The position numbers and the translations under genes were made by a program. 64,000 nt of DNA from a virus. Below are positions 29,290 to 43,182 of this stretch, one piece after another (positions within the stretch are counted from its first letter, which is position 1; each line of letters starts with the position of its first letter). The stretch lies in UHGV virus genome UHGV-0293664; one strand, 5' to 3'. Under the pieces are notes generated by a model. That model had not been told where the DNA came from. It worked only from the letters and a program-made list of their open reading frames with translations, and searched no databases.

Positions 29290-31357
29290 ATTTATGGCAT
29301 CTGCATACAACCGTTTCGGCGAGCCAAACCCGAAAGCAACTAAGTATAAAAGTGGGGGAAGTGTGAAACGAGACTATCGTGATGAAAAAGAAGTTGAAAC
29401 TGTAGAGACTGTTTTAGAAAATACTAAAATTGTCCCTGTCCCACAACAGAATATCGGTCTGATGGCTGCACAATATTTTGGTGTGCGATCAGCATTGTCC
29501 CAAGAAGACGGTGTGACAGTCACTGCAACATATTTCCCATATTACGACCGCTACGGAAATCTGTCCGGTTTCAAAAAGCGTGACTGGACTATTCCTAAAG
29601 AGCAAAGGGGCCATTTCTCCGTTGTTGGCATCGTAAAGGCCAACTCCCAGATGTTTGGTCAAAAGCTGTGTGCATCTTCCAACAACCGTAAGCAGATCAA
29701 CGTTTGTGAGGGAGAAGGTGATGTTATTGCAGCATGGCAGGCTGCATATCAGATACAAGTAAAAGGGATTCTCACCAATGCTAAAGCCCCGGCAAAGGTG
29801 AAGCAGTGGGCTAAAGAGGTCCAGGACGGGATCGATGCAGTTATCAACGGCGGTGATCTGGCAGGAAAACCCTGCCTGCCTTTTGTTGGAATTAACTGTG
29901 GATGTGCAAACGCAGTAGATACTTTTGCAAACAATGAGAAGTTTATCCGTAGCTATGGAACAGTTGTGCTGGCAATGGATAACGATGCAGCTAACGAGGT
30001 AGAGAAGCAAAAACACGTCATTAAAGGTGTTGAGGCCACGCACAATATCGCAGCATTTTTAATGGCTGATAACGTTTACCACGTAGAATACCCTGGTGAA
30101 GTAAACGACCCTGACGGTGTAAAAGATATCCGAGACATGCTGAAGGCTAAAAAGCTGGAAGATATTGTCAACATGTTCCGGCATCCTGTTAAATATGTGC
30201 CTGATGCTGTGTCGGATTTAGAAGACTTCTCTATCGAGTCTTTGCGGAAAAAGACTTCCAACGGGGTAGATATCAGTGCAGAGTTCCCAAAACTGCAAAA
30301 AATGCTAAAAGGCTTGCACAAAGGGACACTTGTAATGCTTACAGGTCCATCAGGCGGCGGTAAAACAACCGTGGCTAAAAAACTGGAACACTGTATTGCA
30401 AGATACCTAATGGACCCGACATGCCAGAAGGCTGATGACTATGAAGAGGATGATCGTCTATGTATGATCCATCTTGAGGAGGACCCAGAGGAAGCAATTA
30501 ACTCCTTGTATGCAAACCAGTTAGGGTTTGATGTTAAAGAGTTTGTTGAAGATCCTAGCCAGTTTTTAACTGATCAAGAACACGCAGAGATTCACCAATC
30601 ATGGGCAAAAGCTGGAAAAATCAAAGTGTTCAAACATTTCGGATCTATTCCGGTGGACGAGTTGATTACCAAGCTTAAGCAAATGGTTTGCCTGTACCAT
30701 TGCCGTTATATTGTGCTGGATCACCTGTCCATGGTAATTTCAGGGCTTAATGTTAAGGATGAGCGAAAAGAACTGGACATGGCTATGACTCAGCTGGCTG
30801 CGTTTTGTAAGCAGTTTAACGTGTTTATCTTGGTGATCGCTCACCTCAAACGTACAGAGATTGTGCCTCCTAAGGACAAGGATGGTAACCCGTTACCTTT
30901 CTGGTATCCTGTGCGAAAAGAGAATTTGCGAGGATCGGCGGGGCTTGAACAGTTGAGTTGGGTAGTCATAGGTGTCGAGGCCGAAGAAATGGTGGATCGT
31001 TCTCGTGGACGTGTCCGTCTGGTAGGTCTTAAAAACCGTCCAGCAAAAACTCTAGGTATTGCTGACACTTTGGTTATGGACCCGCACACAGGTAAGTTCC
31101 ATGATGCCAGTAATTGGTACTGGGACAAAGAAATGCAAATGTTTACAGACGGAGAAGGTGGGGAGGTTGTTTGGAGACCTCAGGCTATGTTTGAGGATCA
31201 GGAGCATGCAGTTGTAGAAACACCTATGGGCAAGGTTGTGGCTGATAAGGTTGTAACTCCTACTGTTAAGTCTGTTGACACGCAGGAAGACCTCCAGTAC
31301 GATGATCCATCCTCTGACCCGGTCCCCGGTTTTGAGGATGATGAAACGCCTTTTTAA
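29279..31357 (+). CDS. bifunctional DNA primase-helicase (TOPRIM primase + DnaB-like helicase)
   Basis: 692 aa; TOPRIM-like CEGEGD and MDNDAANE; Walker A TGPSGGGKTT. Confidence 0.9.
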   Translation: MGSKFMASAYNRFGEPNPKATKYKSGGSVKRDYRDEKEVETVETVLENTKIVPVPQQNIGLMAAQYFGVRSALSQEDGVTVTATYFPYYDRYGNLSGFKKRDWTIPKEQRGHFSVVGIVKANSQMFGQKLCASSNNRKQINVCEGEGDVIAAWQAAYQIQVKGILTNAKAPAKVKQWAKEVQDGIDAVINGGDLAGKPCLPFVGINCGCANAVDTFANNEKFIRSYGTVVLAMDNDAANEVEKQKHVIKGVEATHNIAAFLMADNVYHVEYPGEVNDPDGVKDIRDMLKAKKLEDIVNMFRHPVKYVPDAVSDLEDFSIESLRKKTSNGVDISAEFPKLQKMLKGLHKGTLVMLTGPSGGGKTTVAKKLEHCIARYLMDPTCQKADDYEEDDRLCMIHLEEDPEEAINSLYANQLGFDVKEFVEDPSQFLTDQEHAEIHQSWAKAGKIKVFKHFGSIPVDELITKLKQMVCLYHCRYIVLDHLSMVISGLNVKDERKELDMAMTQLAAFCKQFNVFILVIAHLKRTEIVPPKDKDGNPLPFWYPVRKENLRGSAGLEQLSWVVIGVEAEEMVDRSRGRVRLVGLKNRPAKTLGIADTLVMDPHTGKFHDASNWYWDKEMQMFTDGEGGEVVWRPQAMFEDQEHAVVETPMGKVVADKVVTPTVKSVDTQEDLQYDDPSSDPVPGFEDDETPF

Positions 31358-37737: not shown

Positions 37738-38103
37738 ATGGAACAAATGAACGATCAAACGTCGGTTGCGATGAACGAGCAAGAACAACCTCAAGAATTT
37801 TTCTTAGGGTTAAGTAAAGATCAAGTGTCTCTTCTGCTAGTGCTTTCTTCTTTCATGGGAAGACTTCAGGAGCTTACACAACAGCCAGAGGCTGAACAAT
37901 TATTCCAGGCTCTGCGTGAAGAAGAAAAATATCGTCGTTTGGACTATGCCTTAGGTTGGGTAGCTCAACAACGAGATATGCTGATGGCCCTCTCTGGGAC
38001 CACAAGTTTTGCAATGGGCCTGTTGGCTCAAGTTCAGGACAAATTAATTCAAGCAGGGTTTGCACACACGGCAAACACTAACGAAGAACAAGGAGACAAA
38101 TAA
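37738..38103 (+). CDS. hypothetical protein
   Basis: 121 aa; SD CGGAGA. Confidence 0.7.
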   Translation: MEQMNDQTSVAMNEQEQPQEFFLGLSKDQVSLLLVLSSFMGRLQELTQQPEAEQLFQALREEEKYRRLDYALGWVAQQRDMLMALSGTTSFAMGLLAQVQDKLIQAGFAHTANTNEEQGDK

Positions 38104-39329
38104 TGAGCGTTATTCAACAATTCGCTAACCCGATGAATCCGCGTGAAACTGTTTTACTGGCTCACGGCATGATTAAACGTGTCAGCATCAAGCCTATCAA
38201 GGGTGCTGATCCTACAACAGGTATTAAAACCACTGTGTGGCAAGGTAAGAAAATTGAATCCAGCCACACCATCTCTTTACTGATTTCTGAACTGGATTCC
38301 TCTGATAACCTGCTTCAAGGTGGTGAAGAAGTTTGGATCAGTATGGGTGATAAGCTGCTTAAACCTGGTCATCAAGACTCTGTCTCTGTTAAAATTGATG
38401 ACAAGTGGGAAACCGTAACGCCGGGATGGATCGTAAATATCCCTTTGAAGGCAAACGAGCATAAAGGTAAGACCTATTACAAAGGCTCACTGGCTAAGAT
38501 GGTCAAGCTGGGTGCAGGAGAGGCTCCAGCAGCGACTCAGCAGCAAAAACAGCAACAAGGTGCACAATCACAAGGCCAGAAGCAGAAACCTCAGCAGAAT
38601 GCCAATCAGGACGTTTTACGCATCTATGGTGATGTGACTCAGATTGTTGGCAACGTGGTTACTGTTAATGACCACAAGATTGGCGAAGGTGCTATGGTTG
38701 TCACTGATGAGCAGCTTAAAGACCTGGTGGTAGGTGGTCGTGTTGCAGCCATTGTTGACAAAGACACCGGAAACATTATCAGTGGTTTCAAAGCCTACCC
38801 ACCTAAGGAAGAGAACGGCACTCAAGGCTCTGGTGGCAAGCGTAAATCCTCTTACGACCCTATCGGTGTGGAAACGGGGCATAGCATCAATGCGTTGCAG
38901 ATCATCCTGGATCGCGGGTTTAAGGTAGACGACCCACTGGGCGTGGCTAAAACACTGCACGTAGTCACCATTGAGCTTAAGAAAGAGTATGCTCAAGCCA
39001 CCAACCGAACTGAAGATGAAGTAGGTGCCAGTGTCGGTAATGCGGTGTTGAACGCTTGTCGCCGTATTGACAAGAAAACGAAAGTTGATGATTTTGCAGC
39101 GGCAATTACTGCAGAAGCAAAAGATGTCTTGACTAATCTGGCTGAGCCGTTGTACGATTGGATCAAGAACGGTGCTGGGTCAACTGACCATCAAGAACCT
39201 CAGGCTGCCAAACAGGAAGCAGCTCCACAGCAAAACACTGTAGACGCTCCTCCTGTAAATGATGAGGAAGATGACCCAATGGATCAGAATCCAGCACAGT
39301 ACGCCTTTGATGATGACATCCCTTTTTAA
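38103..39329 (+). CDS. single-stranded DNA-binding protein-like, with bacterial SSB-type C-terminal tip
   Basis: 408 aa; ends ...AQYAFDDDIPF (same acidic tip as E. coli SSB); Gln-rich linker; N-terminal region OB-fold-like. Confidence 0.8.
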   Translation: MSVIQQFANPMNPRETVLLAHGMIKRVSIKPIKGADPTTGIKTTVWQGKKIESSHTISLLISELDSSDNLLQGGEEVWISMGDKLLKPGHQDSVSVKIDDKWETVTPGWIVNIPLKANEHKGKTYYKGSLAKMVKLGAGEAPAATQQQKQQQGAQSQGQKQKPQQNANQDVLRIYGDVTQIVGNVVTVNDHKIGEGAMVVTDEQLKDLVVGGRVAAIVDKDTGNIISGFKAYPPKEENGTQGSGGKRKSSYDPIGVETGHSINALQIILDRGFKVDDPLGVAKTLHVVTIELKKEYAQATNRTEDEVGASVGNAVLNACRRIDKKTKVDDFAAAITAEAKDVLTNLAEPLYDWIKNGAGSTDHQEPQAAKQEAAPQQNTVDAPPVNDEEDDPMDQNPAQYAFDDDIPF

Positions 39330-39345
39330 CAATTAGTTAACATAG

Positions 39346-39373
39346 CCCTGCCCGAAAGGGTGGGGCATTTTTG
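39346..39373 (+). terminator. intrinsic terminator with GAAA tetraloop (copy 2 of 2)
   Basis: Same CCCTGCCC-GAAA-GGGTGGGG hairpin as 28634, then CATTTTT. Confidence 0.75.
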
Positions 39374-39391
39374 TACAAGGAGATCTGAAAA

Positions 39392-39808
39392 ATGACATTA
39401 GAAGATATCATTGTTAAACCTGAGAACTATGACCAATACAACCTGTCAACTCAATCTGTAGACCTCGGATGCGCCACAGTCAGTGCATGGCTGGTTAACG
39501 GAAAAGAGCTTGACGAGTGCCTGGAAGCACACATGTCGGTGAATAAATTTCTTGATGAAAATACCCACTGGCTAGAGGGTGCAGGAGTATATGCTTCATG
39601 GTTGGAGAGTATGGGATTCGACTACCAATCTGAAGAGGGGTGGTGGAGCTATTTAGCTATCTGCCCAGAGACGCTGCAATGCTTCATGAAATACTCTGAA
39701 GATTTGGAGTACCGGGCGGTGGTTGATAGTGCTATTGCCCGTTATAGCCGTAAACCTTTTTCCCACGACATTAAAACTGTGGAAGAATTTGTTGAAGTTT
39801 TCTGTTGA
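39392..39808 (+). CDS. hypothetical protein
   Basis: 138 aa; SD AAGGAGA. Confidence 0.75.
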   Translation: MTLEDIIVKPENYDQYNLSTQSVDLGCATVSAWLVNGKELDECLEAHMSVNKFLDENTHWLEGAGVYASWLESMGFDYQSEEGWWSYLAICPETLQCFMKYSEDLEYRAVVDSAIARYSRKPFSHDIKTVEEFVEVFC

Positions 39809-39904
39809 CACAGGTTGAAAGGCGTGCAATTATAACTTCATATAACGGGAGGACGCGATGAACGAAGAAAACTGGGATGTATAACTAACAGGAGGCCACT
39901 GCCC

Positions 39905-40102
39905 ATGATTTATCGAATCCGTGTAAGAGAAGATGCACCAGGCTGTTACTTTGACTGGCGTGGGTGGTGGTTTCTCCACCCGATGGATGGACTCACAGAT
40001 AGAATGCTGGATGCTGCCCTTTATACAGATACCGACATAGAATATAATCTCTATCTGAAGGACGGTATAGATAACGGTCTATTTGAAGCAATTCCTGTGT
40101 AA
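39905..40102 (+). CDS. hypothetical protein
   Basis: 65 aa; SD CAGGAGG. Confidence 0.7.
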   Translation: MIYRIRVREDAPGCYFDWRGWWFLHPMDGLTDRMLDAALYTDTDIEYNLYLKDGIDNGLFEAIPV

Positions 40103-40170
40103 GAGACTGTGATAGCCATGTTTTATGATCTTCCTGTAGCACCACCACCTGTTGAACCCGGAGAACTAAG

Positions 40171-40596
40171 ATGACCTATGAAATGCCAAAACTGATTCGT
40201 GACGATGCCCAAAACGCCCACACCTTTATCATGGGCAAACGCATGGATATTATTTGTCATAAAGATTTCTGGGAAGGAAGTTACTTCACAGAGTATTTTG
40301 GTAAACTGGACAATGGTCTGCTGATCCAGTTCTACACCGATGCGGAAAACAACATTCACTGGGAGTTCGAAACTGAAGATATCCATAAACTTTTCACCTT
40401 CCTCGGTATTAAGGTTGAGGCCAAGTTTGAAGAAGGTGAGTGCGACGATTGTGGATTCTATGAGGTAACAGATTTCTATCTCCCGAGTGGTGAGAACCTT
40501 TACTATGAAAGCCACTTCGGTAACTCCAATATGCCACAGTGCTGGACTGAGTTTTTTGAAATTGCGGAAGAGGAGCTGGCATACCGTGATTATTGA
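40171..40596 (+). CDS. hypothetical protein
   Basis: 141 aa; SD CGGAGAA. Confidence 0.75.
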   Translation: MTYEMPKLIRDDAQNAHTFIMGKRMDIICHKDFWEGSYFTEYFGKLDNGLLIQFYTDAENNIHWEFETEDIHKLFTFLGIKVEAKFEEGECDDCGFYEVTDFYLPSGENLYYESHFGNSNMPQCWTEFFEIAEEELAYRDY

Positions 40597-41044
40597 TACT
40601 GTAGAGGGGGATTTAATCTCCCTTTTTAAGAGCGGTGCTGGTCACCTGATCCACGGTTGCAACTGCTTCCACACAATGGGCAAGGGGATAGCAAAACAGA
40701 TCGCCCGTGAGTTCCCTCAAGCACTGGCAGCTGACAAAGAGACCAGACATGGTTGCCTAAGTAAACTGGGCGCGTTCTCAAGATGGGAGCACTTATCTCC
40801 GATAGGTATTGTCTACGGAATAAATCTGTATACTCAGTTCTACCCAGGGCCTAATGCTGAATATTTCTCAATCCTGAAAGGCTTTGAGCGAGTCAATGAG
40901 GTATTCGAGGGATCGACTTTACCATTCTACATCCCTAAGATCGGGTGCGGCATAGGCGGTTTGAAGTGGGAACACGTAGAGGACGTTATTAACCTTGCCA
41001 CTTTCGACATAGATATTGTCGTGGTGGAGTACAAAAAGTGTTGA
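40586..41044 (+). CDS. macro domain protein, TARG1/OARD1-like (ADP-ribose processing)
   Basis: GTG 40586 after AGGAG; GDLISLF...HLIHGCNCFHTMGKGIAKQIAREFP and IPKIGCGIGGLKWEHVEDVI match TARG1-type macro domain pattern. Confidence 0.75.
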   Translation: MIIDTVEGDLISLFKSGAGHLIHGCNCFHTMGKGIAKQIAREFPQALAADKETRHGCLSKLGAFSRWEHLSPIGIVYGINLYTQFYPGPNAEYFSILKGFERVNEVFEGSTLPFYIPKIGCGIGGLKWEHVEDVINLATFDIDIVVVEYKKC

Positions 41045-41069
41045 CGACAATCTTCTGAGGTGATATAGT
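41041..41069 (+). promoter_or_regulatory. sigma70-like promoter
   Basis: TTGACG-17 nt-TATAGT. Confidence 0.55.
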
Positions 41070-41098
41070 TTCCACAACAACTAAGAGAGGAGAGCACT

Positions 41099-41269
41099 GT
41101 GGAGACTAAAATCTTAATTCTTGCTGTGGTAGATACAACCGAAGGAGCTATATTCGAATCTGCAGGAGGGTATTTCTACCTACCATACGGAAAAAGAACT
41201 TCCGAGCCAAGTAAAGATTCAATCCTCAAAGTGTTCCCGTGTGCTTTCTGGCTGGAGATTTTGGTATAA
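41099..41269 (+). CDS. possible small protein (56 aa)
   Basis: GTG start after GAGAGGAGAG; hand-translated VETKILILAVVDTTEGAIFE...; not in ORF track. Confidence 0.3.
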   Translation: METKILILAVVDTTEGAIFESAGGYFYLPYGKRTSEPSKDSILKVFPCAFWLEILV

Positions 41270-41295
41270 GATTGCAGAGGATTTGGGAGAGAATT

Positions 41296-41490
41296 ATGAG
41301 AAACAAGAAAGAACTTTACTCTGGTGAGTGGATCAACGATCAACAGGTGGGAGAGGTAACCTGCTTCCGATGTTTTACCAGGTACAATCTTAAAACTGCA
41401 CCAAAAAGTGTTCCAAAGACTGACGGTTATTACATAAAAGAACCTCATTGCCCAAAATGTAAATGCCGATTGTACTGGAGCAATCTGTAA
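41296..41490 (+). CDS. small zinc-ribbon-like protein
   Basis: ATG 41296 after GGGAGAG; CFRCF...CPKCKC. Confidence 0.6.
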   Translation: MRNKKELYSGEWINDQQVGEVTCFRCFTRYNLKTAPKSVPKTDGYYIKEPHCPKCKCRLYWSNL

Positions 41491-41494
41491 GAGG

Positions 41495-41522
41495 TTGACA
41501 TCTGAAAACTGCAGTGTATAAT
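41495..41522 (+). promoter_or_regulatory. consensus sigma70 promoter
   Basis: TTGACA-16 nt-TATAAT. Confidence 0.65.
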
Positions 41523-41756
41523 ATACGCATAAACTAACAGAGAGCGATGTATTATGGTAATTTTTAACCGGGATGGTATCATAGTTAGACAGCACCCGTT
41601 CCTTGAATACTATCAAATTGAGCAATGGTGCTACGGGGATTGCAGTCACTCCTATGGACAAAGTTGGGGGGTATCGCACAGTTTTTGAATCAACAGATCT
41701 TGACAAAGTAAGACAGAAAGTTTTAGAACTTCTTAACAACAAGTGAGTATCGTGCC

Positions 41757-42089
41757 ATGGTAACATTGGAAAGACGTAAAGCTATCGCCGCCACACTGGC
41801 AGACATCTTTTGGGATTGCAACTTAAAAGATACCCGAAATTGTGGCGCATCTGTAGATGTATTATTCCCACGGCCCACCATTGTTGCAATGGGCAACCTG
41901 CTCGATGTGGTATATGGAGCATGGGACAAGGAAGGTGGATTCTATATCTGGCAACCTGACTACGGGACCTGGAAAGAGGTTAGTGGTTCTGCGGACTTCA
42001 CTCCTGCAGAGGCTAAAATGGATGGCTGGAAAATCTATGTCGGTAACGACATGGAACTGAAAGGCGAAATTGTTTACTGGTTACCTTAA
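41757..42089 (+). CDS. hypothetical protein
   Basis: 110-aa ORF; weak SD. Confidence 0.6.
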   Translation: MVTLERRKAIAATLADIFWDCNLKDTRNCGASVDVLFPRPTIVAMGNLLDVVYGAWDKEGGFYIWQPDYGTWKEVSGSADFTPAEAKMDGWKIYVGNDMELKGEIVYWLP

Positions 42090-42109
42090 GAAAGTGCAGG
42101 AGATAAAGT

Positions 42110-42355
42110 ATGAACAAAGGGTGGACATTTGTAGACGGCGTTAAAAACATGCCTCTAGGAAAGTATATTGTAGCCATGGCAGATGAGAATGGCAAGGTGG
42201 ATTTCGGAGTTTGCGAGGTTGTTCTTGCAGGATCTGGTGACTATGCTCACAAAACTGGGATAATTAACGGTCATTTCTACTTTGATTACAACCCTGTTGT
42301 GGCGTATATGGCTATGCCAGAGTTAGAGCTCCCAAAGGAGGGTGCAGATGTTTAA
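42110..42355 (+). CDS. hypothetical protein
   Basis: 81 aa; SD CAGGAGA. Confidence 0.75.
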   Translation: MNKGWTFVDGVKNMPLGKYIVAMADENGKVDFGVCEVVLAGSGDYAHKTGIINGHFYFDYNPVVAYMAMPELELPKEGADV

Positions 42356-42545
42356 GCTTAAATCTGCATGGAACATCGCTGTGGGGGACGAGATCCGTAT
42401 CCCAGGTGGAAAGACCATTATGAAGATATCTCGTATCGAGTACGAAGGTGATCGTGTATTTCATATCTTTGCAGAAGATGGTCGAGAAATTTATATACAG
42501 GCAGGCTCTCACATCTATATCTGTAAGAAAGGGGACGACAAATGA
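42348..42545 (+). CDS. hypothetical protein
   Basis: ATG 42348 after AAGGAGG; 65 aa. Confidence 0.7.
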   Translation: MFKLKSAWNIAVGDEIRIPGGKTIMKISRIEYEGDRVFHIFAEDGREIYIQAGSHIYICKKGDDK

Positions 42546-42874
42546 CAGAGATCATCGTTTCAACTGCAGGGTATGTATTCCTGACAATCATTGCGTTGGC
42601 TATTCTGGTGGCGGTGTATGGATTTGTTATCCTGCCTATTCTTGAGACATTTAGTTTGTGTCGGTGTTGGAGAAAAGCTTACGGACCACAACCGTGGAAA
42701 GACTGGTTCCATTTGGTGCGTATAGCGTTCTCTTATGCCTATGACCACTCTAGCAGTGCATGCGTAACTGGGTACCATGCCTACAACTGGAACTGGGAAG
42801 GGCTGGGGAGATGGACTGTTACAAAAACTATACCCTTACGGTTGTACAAAGGAAAGAACACACTGGGAGCCTGA
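42542..42874 (+). CDS. putative membrane protein
   Basis: 110 aa; hydrophobic N-terminal segment; SD AGGGGA. Confidence 0.7.
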   Translation: MTEIIVSTAGYVFLTIIALAILVAVYGFVILPILETFSLCRCWRKAYGPQPWKDWFHLVRIAFSYAYDHSSSACVTGYHAYNWNWEGLGRWTVTKTIPLRLYKGKNTLGA

Positions 42875-43182
42875 TATTTTAAGTTATCAGGTTGCCAGAG
42901 ATCAGGAGGATTTCTAAAATGGATTTCCTCCTTTTGATATTTTACCTGCCAGGATATTTTAAAATCCTTAGAAAATCAGAAAATGGATCGAAAACTAAAA
43001 TGGATTTTTCAGGGCAGGCACGACGAGATGAACCACTCATCCTGTCGTTTGCACCATATTCCAGACCACCATTACAGATTTCCCGCACATGCTTACATCC
43101 TTCTACTGGAACTTCCTCCGCTTGCCCTTGACCTTTTATGGTAATAATCCAACCACTATCTTGAAGTTGCGATGCAGCTTTT

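Follow-up and report, generated by a model that had tools for sequence, protein, structure and literature searches.

What does a stand-alone macrodomain gene do in a phage genome, and with what active-site chemistry would it work? We addressed this question for a coding sequence of 152 amino acids at positions 40586-41044 (plus strand; GTG start, TGA stop) of UHGV virus genome UHGV-0293664, within an analysed stretch of 64,000 nucleotides (hereafter the window) whose DNA shares 95-97% identity with rV5-like phages of Escherichia (genus Vequintavirus). A first-pass annotation, made from the letters alone, had proposed a TARG1-like macrodomain protein that could reverse ADP-ribosylation by toxins such as DarT. 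The sequence, the list of open reading frames (ORFs), Pfam, PHROG, AlphaFold2 and Foldseek together pointed to a macrodomain protein of the type of T4 Tk.4, also named AdfM. The gene product is almost certainly an ADP-ribose-processing macrodomain enzyme, and comparison with characterised homologues suggests that, as a stand-alone member of the T4 Tk.4 (AdfM) family, it probably acts as an ADP-ribosyl glycohydrolase that reverses DarT2-type ADP-ribosylation of DNA. The gene is a further member, in Vequintavirus, of this already known family and opens no new class of system; several Vequintavirus records already list near-identical copies, under the names 'macro domain protein', 'phosphatase' or 'T4-like protein with Macro domain', and in BASEL Vequintaviruses the gene is 96-97% identical.

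Macrodomain fold and membership of the Tk.4 family

The protein matched the Pfam family Macro (PF01661; E = 1.7e-6, 28.4 bits against a gathering cutoff of 22) and PHROG 335 (E = 2.5e-60). A profile built from 89 homologues and compared with the PDB retrieved Mycobacterium tuberculosis DarG (6e-17), SCO6735 (3e-16), BT1257 (1e-15), TARG1 (6e-15), Thermus aquaticus DarG (7e-15) and Poa1p (8e-14). From the same alignment AlphaFold2 produced a model of high confidence (mean predicted local distance difference test score 96.8, predicted template modelling score 0.91), for which Foldseek found 171 PDB fold matches at E <= 0.001; among the matches listed, nearly all were macrodomains. The best of them were TARG1, Poa1p, DarG, BT1257 and SCO6735, which ranked above viral and MacroD-type macrodomains, and TARG1 aligned with a template modelling score (TM-score) of 0.78-0.84 (E = 3.6e-10). 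Sequence profile and predicted fold thus both place the protein in the TARG1/DarG/Poa1p/SCO6735 (ALC1-like) clade of macrodomains. The class given by the first-pass annotation therefore stands, both in the profile search and in the structure prediction that it had suggested as checks, and the two motif blocks that it had quoted are both present (residues 20-44 and 116-135).

Within this clade, the protein groups with T4 Tk.4, which is 40% identical over 150 of the 152 residues (E = 9e-42) and likewise belongs to PHROG 335 (E = 1.3e-65). Both proteins are stand-alone macrodomains of similar length (155 amino acids in T4) and have in common the pattern HGCNC...MGxG[IV]A...NLYTQ...PxIG[CA]GIG; they differ in lineage (Straboviridae in the case of T4, Vequintavirinae here), in genomic neighbourhood, and in a Ser of Tk.4 at the position of K33. 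A nearer copy was found in the T4 relative Krischvirus KFS-EC (gene 1501-1956), which is 70% identical and occupies the syntenic tk.4 place (regB, vs.1, vs, macro, ..., tk), confirming positional orthology with tk.4. Because the window protein has 70% identity with the KFS-EC copy but only 40% with T4 Tk.4, horizontal exchange of the gene between Krischvirus/T4-type and Vequintavirus lineages is indicated.

The family is widespread. A tblastn search of 50,697 phage records hit 2,799 of them (~5%), from many genera and including the T-even phages, which carry the gene at the tk.4 locus adjoining vs. In an exhaustive profile search, 1,332 clusters passed E <= 1e-30, and with the looser limit of E <= 1e-10 the number rose to 9,885. 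Among seven representatives longer than 260 amino acids, a NADAR domain was fused in three and DUF4326 in two (fusion proteins P0104, P0140, P0210 and P0164), and the motif N-A-Y-T-Q was kept in all four fusion proteins examined. NADAR is the guanine-ADP-ribose DNA hydrolase domain of DarG1 and AdfN, and the fusion therefore ties the macrodomain family to base de-ADP-ribosylation of DNA; the NADAR protein AdfN is a parallel counter to DarTG1 (PMC11825919). In the window itself, tblastn found no NADAR or DUF4326 homologues. The fusion protein P0210 also has an additional uncharacterised N-terminal region of ~150 amino acids.

Active-site residues

The first motif block (residues 20-44; 40643-40717, plus strand) comprises H23-G24-C25-N26-C27 and the phosphate-binding loop M31-G32-K33-G34-I35-A36, and the second (residues 116-135; 40931-40990, plus strand) contains the second diphosphate-binding loop P117-x-I119-G120-C-G122-I-G124-G125. 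Between them lies the family signature N80-L-Y82-T83-Q84-F-Y-P-G88-P (40823-40852, plus strand). Alignments place N26 (40661-40663, plus strand) at the equivalent of DarG N22, SCO6735 N27 and PhiKZ AdfM N23, and Q84 (40835-40837, plus strand) at the place of TARG1 K84, DarG K80 and SCO6735 Q85 (PMC9411070). The equivalences of Q84 and G124 were consistent across three independent sequence and profile alignments. The catalytic dyad of TARG1, K84/D125, is thus absent, with Q84 and G124 in its place; likewise, the catalytic Lys80 of DarG is replaced by Q84, while DarG Asn22 is kept as N26 (T. aquaticus numbering).

Of the 239 aligned family members, 235 have a residue at position 84, and in 233 of these it is Gln, as in T4 Tk.4 and the Krischvirus copy; PhiKZ gp104 has Lys there, and one truncated sequence has Arg. 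The loss of the lysine is therefore the state of the family and not a defect of one sequence. Positions H23, G24, N26, C27, N80, Y82, T83 and Q84 vary little or not at all in the 239 sequences. The protein has all 18 residues of the family signature (H23, G24, N26, C27, M31, G32, G34, A36, D50, N80, Y82, T83, Q84, P117, I119, G120, G122 and G125), each of which is conserved in at least 90% of the 89 and of the 239 sequences. Asp50 (codon 40733-40735, plus strand) occurs in 234 of 237 Tk.4-type sequences, and DarG, SCO6735 and PhiKZ gp104 have another residue at the aligned position. K33 is found in 10 of the 239 members, where Ala is usual.

In this pattern the protein resembles Streptomyces coelicolor SCO6735 (PDB 5E3B) and Bacteroides BT1257 (2FG1/2AFC), which have Gln at the place of TARG1 K84 and DarG K80, keep the Asn and the His, and have the Lys of the G-K-G loop; against SCO6735, the aligned pairs are Q84/Q85, N26/N27, H23/H24 and K33/K34. 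These two are cellular rather than phage proteins and are only ~22-24% identical in the fold alignment; in addition, their Gln lies in the context N-M-I-G-Q-H instead of N-x-Y-T-Q, K89 of SCO6735 is not conserved, and D50 is specific to the phage family.

DarG (PDB 5M3I, 5M31/5M3E) belongs to the same clade, gives the best sequence match in the PDB, keeps the Asn and also lacks the Asp of TARG1 D125, and its macrodomain was the only match of the protein in PADLOC (9.4e-14) and in NCBIfam (1.2e-12). The phage protein differs in having neither a C-terminal DarT-binding domain nor an adjacent darT, and in carrying Gln instead of the catalytic Lys (K80; K78 in PhiKZ). With the NCBIfam model for DarG (NF048014; cutoff 250), the protein reached 47.8 bits and covered model positions 3-141 of 338. 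A DarG antitoxin proper was rejected on the replaced lysine, the different architecture and this score below the cutoff. PhiKZ gp104 shares the Asn (N23, equivalent to N26) and the lack of an Asp at the place of TARG1 D125, whereas its match to the DarG model is far stronger (4e-39 versus 9e-14 for the window protein) and its identity to the Tk.4-type family is ~20%. Judged from the alignments, the T4-type AdfM family has a Gln-type active site and a family-specific Asp50 that distinguish it from DarG, TARG1 and PhiKZ AdfM, and the two proteins named AdfM represent two lineages, a DarG-like Lys type (PhiKZ) and a Gln type (T4 and Vequintavirus).

Human TARG1/OARD1 (PDB 4J5R/4J5S) was the top Foldseek match, and its blocks align as xMGAGIA and PRIGCGLxxLxW. 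However, its first block reads H-C-I-S-E-D-C against H-G-C-N-C here, without the conserved Asn, and TARG1 proper was rejected on its catalytic residues. The TARG1-like label of the first-pass annotation consequently needs correcting as far as the chemistry is concerned. The same annotation had offered the absence of a macrodomain match or of catalytic residues as grounds for giving up its reading: a macrodomain match was found, and catalytic residues are literally absent as far as the TARG1 dyad is concerned. Taken at face value, the latter would have led to wrongly rejecting the gene, and it misleads because the Gln variant is catalytically competent in SCO6735. Yeast Poa1p (PDB 6LFQ-6LFU) resembles the protein in its first block (LIHSCNC versus LIHGCNC) and in fold (E ~1e-9), but is ~25 residues longer, with insertions (TM-score 0.66-0.72). 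At the positions mutated in Poa1p, the window protein has H23 in common, T30 at the place of S30 and G124 at the place of F152. After the conserved Thr, Poa1p presumably has Ser and not Gln.

Proposed anti-DarTG2 role and rival explanations

In a 2025 preprint (10.1101/2025.11.20.689424), a transposon library of T4 grown on a DarTG2 host showed depletion of one gene, tk.4; its clean knockout sensitised T4 to DarTG2, and the gene was named adfM. PhiKZ gp104, to which a 2026 paper gave the name AdfM as well, removes thymidine-linked ADP-ribose from DNA in vitro, and its deletion abolishes DarTG2 resistance (PMC13309987). SCO6735 efficiently cleaves thymidine-linked ADP-ribose from DNA with high turnover; substitutions Q85A and Q85E abolish this activity, N27S nearly does so and K34E removes most of it, and Asn27 was proposed to lock Gln85 in place (PMC9411070). 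The suggestion of the first-pass annotation that the gene acts against DarT thus gains support from its full-length, 40% identical homologue Tk.4, which protects T4 from DarTG2.

By analogy with these homologues, the protein would be a hydrolase acting on thymidine-linked ADP-ribose in DNA and would counter DarTG2 in this phage. The gene would be expressed from the Vequintavirus block of small genes transcribed by the host polymerase, while host DarT2 would ADP-ribosylate thymidines of single-stranded phage DNA and thereby block replication. The enzyme would bind ADP-ribose in the macrodomain cleft, formed by the loops M31-G-K-G-I-A36 and P117-x-I-G-C-G-I-G-G125, and cleave the ribose-thymine bond, yielding free ADP-ribose and restored DNA. 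Given that N26, Q84, H23 and K33 are equivalents of SCO6735 residues, we infer that an SCO6735-type route is most likely, and not that of TARG1: Q84, held by N26, would position the distal ribose and the transition state, and the chemistry would be carried out by a backbone-held water without a covalent lysine intermediate.

Several points weigh against this assignment. The evidence for an anti-DarTG2 role comes from homologues and from no Vequintavirus copy, and in the case of T4 Tk.4 it is genetic only and comes from a preprint (10.1101/2025.11.20.689424). The preprint's screens with Bas54, a member of the Vequintavirinae, did not report the macrodomain gene and, in the available passages, are not described as using a DarTG2 host. 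An identity of 40% to Tk.4 leaves room for another substrate, and the clade is promiscuous, acting also on Glu/Asp-linked protein ADP-ribose, O-acetyl-ADP-ribose, ADP-ribose-1''-phosphate and uracil-linked ADP-ribose on RNA (PMC9411070; PMC13036486). The H-x-C-N-C and T30 pattern resembles that of Poa1p, a phosphatase, and a Sir2-like gene elsewhere in related phages could supply a different substrate. Finally, because the catalytic lysine of DarG and TARG1 is missing, the proposed chemistry has SCO6735 as its sole analogue, and the SCO6735 mechanism itself derives partly from simulations (PMC9411070).

Two rival explanations concern the substrate. The protein could be a small-molecule ADP-ribose hydrolase, either a Poa1p-like ADP-ribose-1''-phosphate phosphatase or an O-acetyl-ADP-ribose deacetylase, that clears by-products of 2'-phosphotransferases or sirtuins, maybe of a phage Sir2-like protein. 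This would fit the label 'phosphatase' of PHROG 335 and RefSeq, the 'A1pp phosphatase motif' in the annotation of T4 Tk.4 and the O-acetyl-ADP-ribose deacetylase annotation of some phage copies; however, such labels are transferred names and not tests. Poa1p is among the best PDB matches and shares H23-x-C-N-C and Ser/Thr30, yet its F152 is not conserved (G124 here); with a first block so similar, an ADP-ribose-1''-phosphate phosphatase activity is conceivable on sequence grounds. The Sir2-like protein of the related Vequintavirus APECc02 could make O-acetyl-ADP-ribose or ADP-ribosylated proteins, but its gene is on the opposite strand, at a distance of ~50 kb and beyond the window. T4 is not known to have a Sir2 gene though it carries Tk.4, so the family is independent of a phage sirtuin. 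Moreover, the fusion partner is NADAR, a DNA-base de-ADP-ribosylase, and not a sirtuin or 2'-phosphotransferase, and the T4 knockout phenotype is DarTG2-specific (10.1101/2025.11.20.689424). Taken together, we consider a small-molecule substrate quite improbable. We judge it just as doubtful that the protein reverses ADP-ribosylation of protein or RNA instead of DNA, counteracting other host ADP-ribosyltransferase defences or toxins or removing uracil-linked ADP-ribose from RNA. TARG1 and SCO6735 do strip Glu/Asp-linked ADP-ribose off PARP1 (PMC9411070), TARG1, DarG and SCO6735 remove uracil-linked ADP-ribose from RNA (PMC13036486), and 9,885 clusters and 2,799 phage records of many genera are a wider spread than one defence system might suggest. 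Nevertheless, no Tk.4-type member has a known protein or RNA target, and the sole phenotype recorded is DarTG2-specific (10.1101/2025.11.20.689424). CmdT-type adenine ADP-ribosylation of RNA is described as irreversible (PMC13036486), and according to the abstract of the CmdTAC paper this system defends robustly against T-even phages, whose genomes include Tk.4.

A non-catalytic role, in which the protein would be an ADP-ribose binder sequestering modified targets or a stoichiometric DarT inhibitor binding the toxin, appears very improbable. In its favour, the TARG1 pair K84/D125 has given way to Q84 and G124, and catalytically inactive forms of SCO6735, DarG and TARG1 retain the ability to inhibit DarT through interaction (PMC9411070). 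Against this, Gln at that position is needed for catalysis by SCO6735, the wild type of which has high turnover (PMC9411070), and DarG also lacks the Asp. In addition, N26, H23 and both phosphate loops are strictly conserved, as they would be in an enzyme, which makes a purely non-catalytic role unlikely. There is also a small chance that the Gln-type Tk.4 family, with its invariant N-x-Y-T-Q motif, its own invariant Asp50 and no catalytic lysine, goes beyond a copy of DarG and is a mechanistically distinct phage branch of de-ADP-ribosylases with substrates broader than, or different from, DarT2-modified thymidine. Such substrates could include uracil-linked ADP-ribose on RNA or products of other defences that consume nicotinamide adenine dinucleotide (NAD), and a broader range would help explain the presence of the family in ~5% of sequenced phage genomes, its many host genera and its occasional fusions to NADAR and DUF4326.

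If the anti-DarTG2 role is true, Vequintaviruses, which are often considered for therapy against pathogenic Escherichia coli, would hold a ready-made enzymatic counter to DarTG2, and the gene would be an aid in predicting their host range among DarTG2-positive strains. By the residue analysis, the widespread T4-type AdfM family is predicted to work without the lysine chemistry of DarG and TARG1; it has a Gln-type site, for which Streptomyces SCO6735 is the one case studied to date, and residues Q84, N26, D50 and K33 may offer a natural mutant set on the removal of base-linked ADP-ribose without a catalytic lysine.

Gene boundaries, promoters and genomic neighbourhood

The macrodomain gene has a single open frame closed by TGA 41042-41044. 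The ORF list placed its start further upstream, at GTG 40487 (185 amino acids), and we rejected this start because relatives use the GTG equivalent to 40586, as in the 'macro domain protein' coding sequence of phage I29, database homologues begin MIIDTV, and a Shine-Dalgarno sequence (GAGGAG; 40570-40575, plus strand) precedes 40586 by 10 nucleotides. This ribosome-binding site lies inside the upstream ORF (40171-40596, plus strand; 141 amino acids; PHROG 8157, function unknown), whose stop codon TGA 40594-40596 gives the 11-nucleotide overlap stated in the first-pass annotation. In three relatives the GTG, the Shine-Dalgarno sequence and the overlap were all invariant, even where the macrodomain protein was only 83% identical. 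Translation of the two genes is probably coupled, given the 11-nucleotide overlap.

The sigma70-like promoter that the first-pass annotation had located at the stop codon is present at 41041-41069 (plus strand; TTGACG-17-TATAGT with an extended -10 TG, score 10/12), and it is kept base for base in relatives, as is the 5' leader of the next gene (GTG start, 41099-41269), which it probably serves. Promoter-like sites are about twice as frequent as expected in this region (15 in 39000-43000 versus 7.6 +/- 3.0 in shuffled sequence), so that any single one, including this, is suggestive rather than proven; the excess fits a block of small genes transcribed by the host polymerase. Another site in the block, just upstream of a small PHROG 6957 gene, is a perfect sigma70 consensus (TTGACA-16-TATAAT, 12/12; 41495-41522, plus strand). 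The promoter scan further gave a candidate sigma70-like promoter at 39805-39833 (plus strand; TTGACA-17-AATTAT with TG), tentatively assigned to the unit 39905-41044 and situated downstream of a terminator-like hairpin at 39345-39366. A terminator-like match within the macrodomain ORF (40606-40621) was discounted, having a stem of only 5 base pairs and belonging to a kind of match that occurs at chance frequency.

The gene lies within a long run of small plus-strand genes without known function, and the genes for rII, helicase and DNA polymerase are found upstream. We looked for a functional partner in the eight flanking ORFs and found no Pfam match among them, and their PHROGs were all of unknown function. 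The gene at 38103-39329 (plus strand), which is followed by the hairpin mentioned above, encodes a protein of 408 amino acids (PHROG 4477, unknown function; no Pfam match) with long Gln/Pro/Ala-rich linkers before the C-terminal tip ...YAFDDDIPF. This ending is the acidic C-terminal tip motif of the E. coli single-stranded DNA-binding protein (SSB), and the protein may be a phage SSB or an SSB-tail mimic docking on host SSB-binding proteins.

Further observations concern related genomes. The Sir2-like gene of APECc02 (30114-30875, minus strand, outside the window) encodes an NAD-dependent enzyme and is flanked by genes for a nucleotide pyrophosphohydrolase and a putative RNA ligase, a set that may be a second NAD/ADP-ribose module of these phages. 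The G-run at ~41664-41671 has one G more in the window than in phages I29 and APECc02, and a conserved gene of 63 amino acids (PHROG 6957) is therefore split into ORFs 41554-41688 and 41603-41746; the extra G reflects a sequencing error in the homopolymer or else a genuine frameshift. Moreover, 16 GenBank records labelled 'Campylobacter phage' are ~95% identical to the rV5-like E. coli phage DNA of the window, and their host labels are probably wrong.

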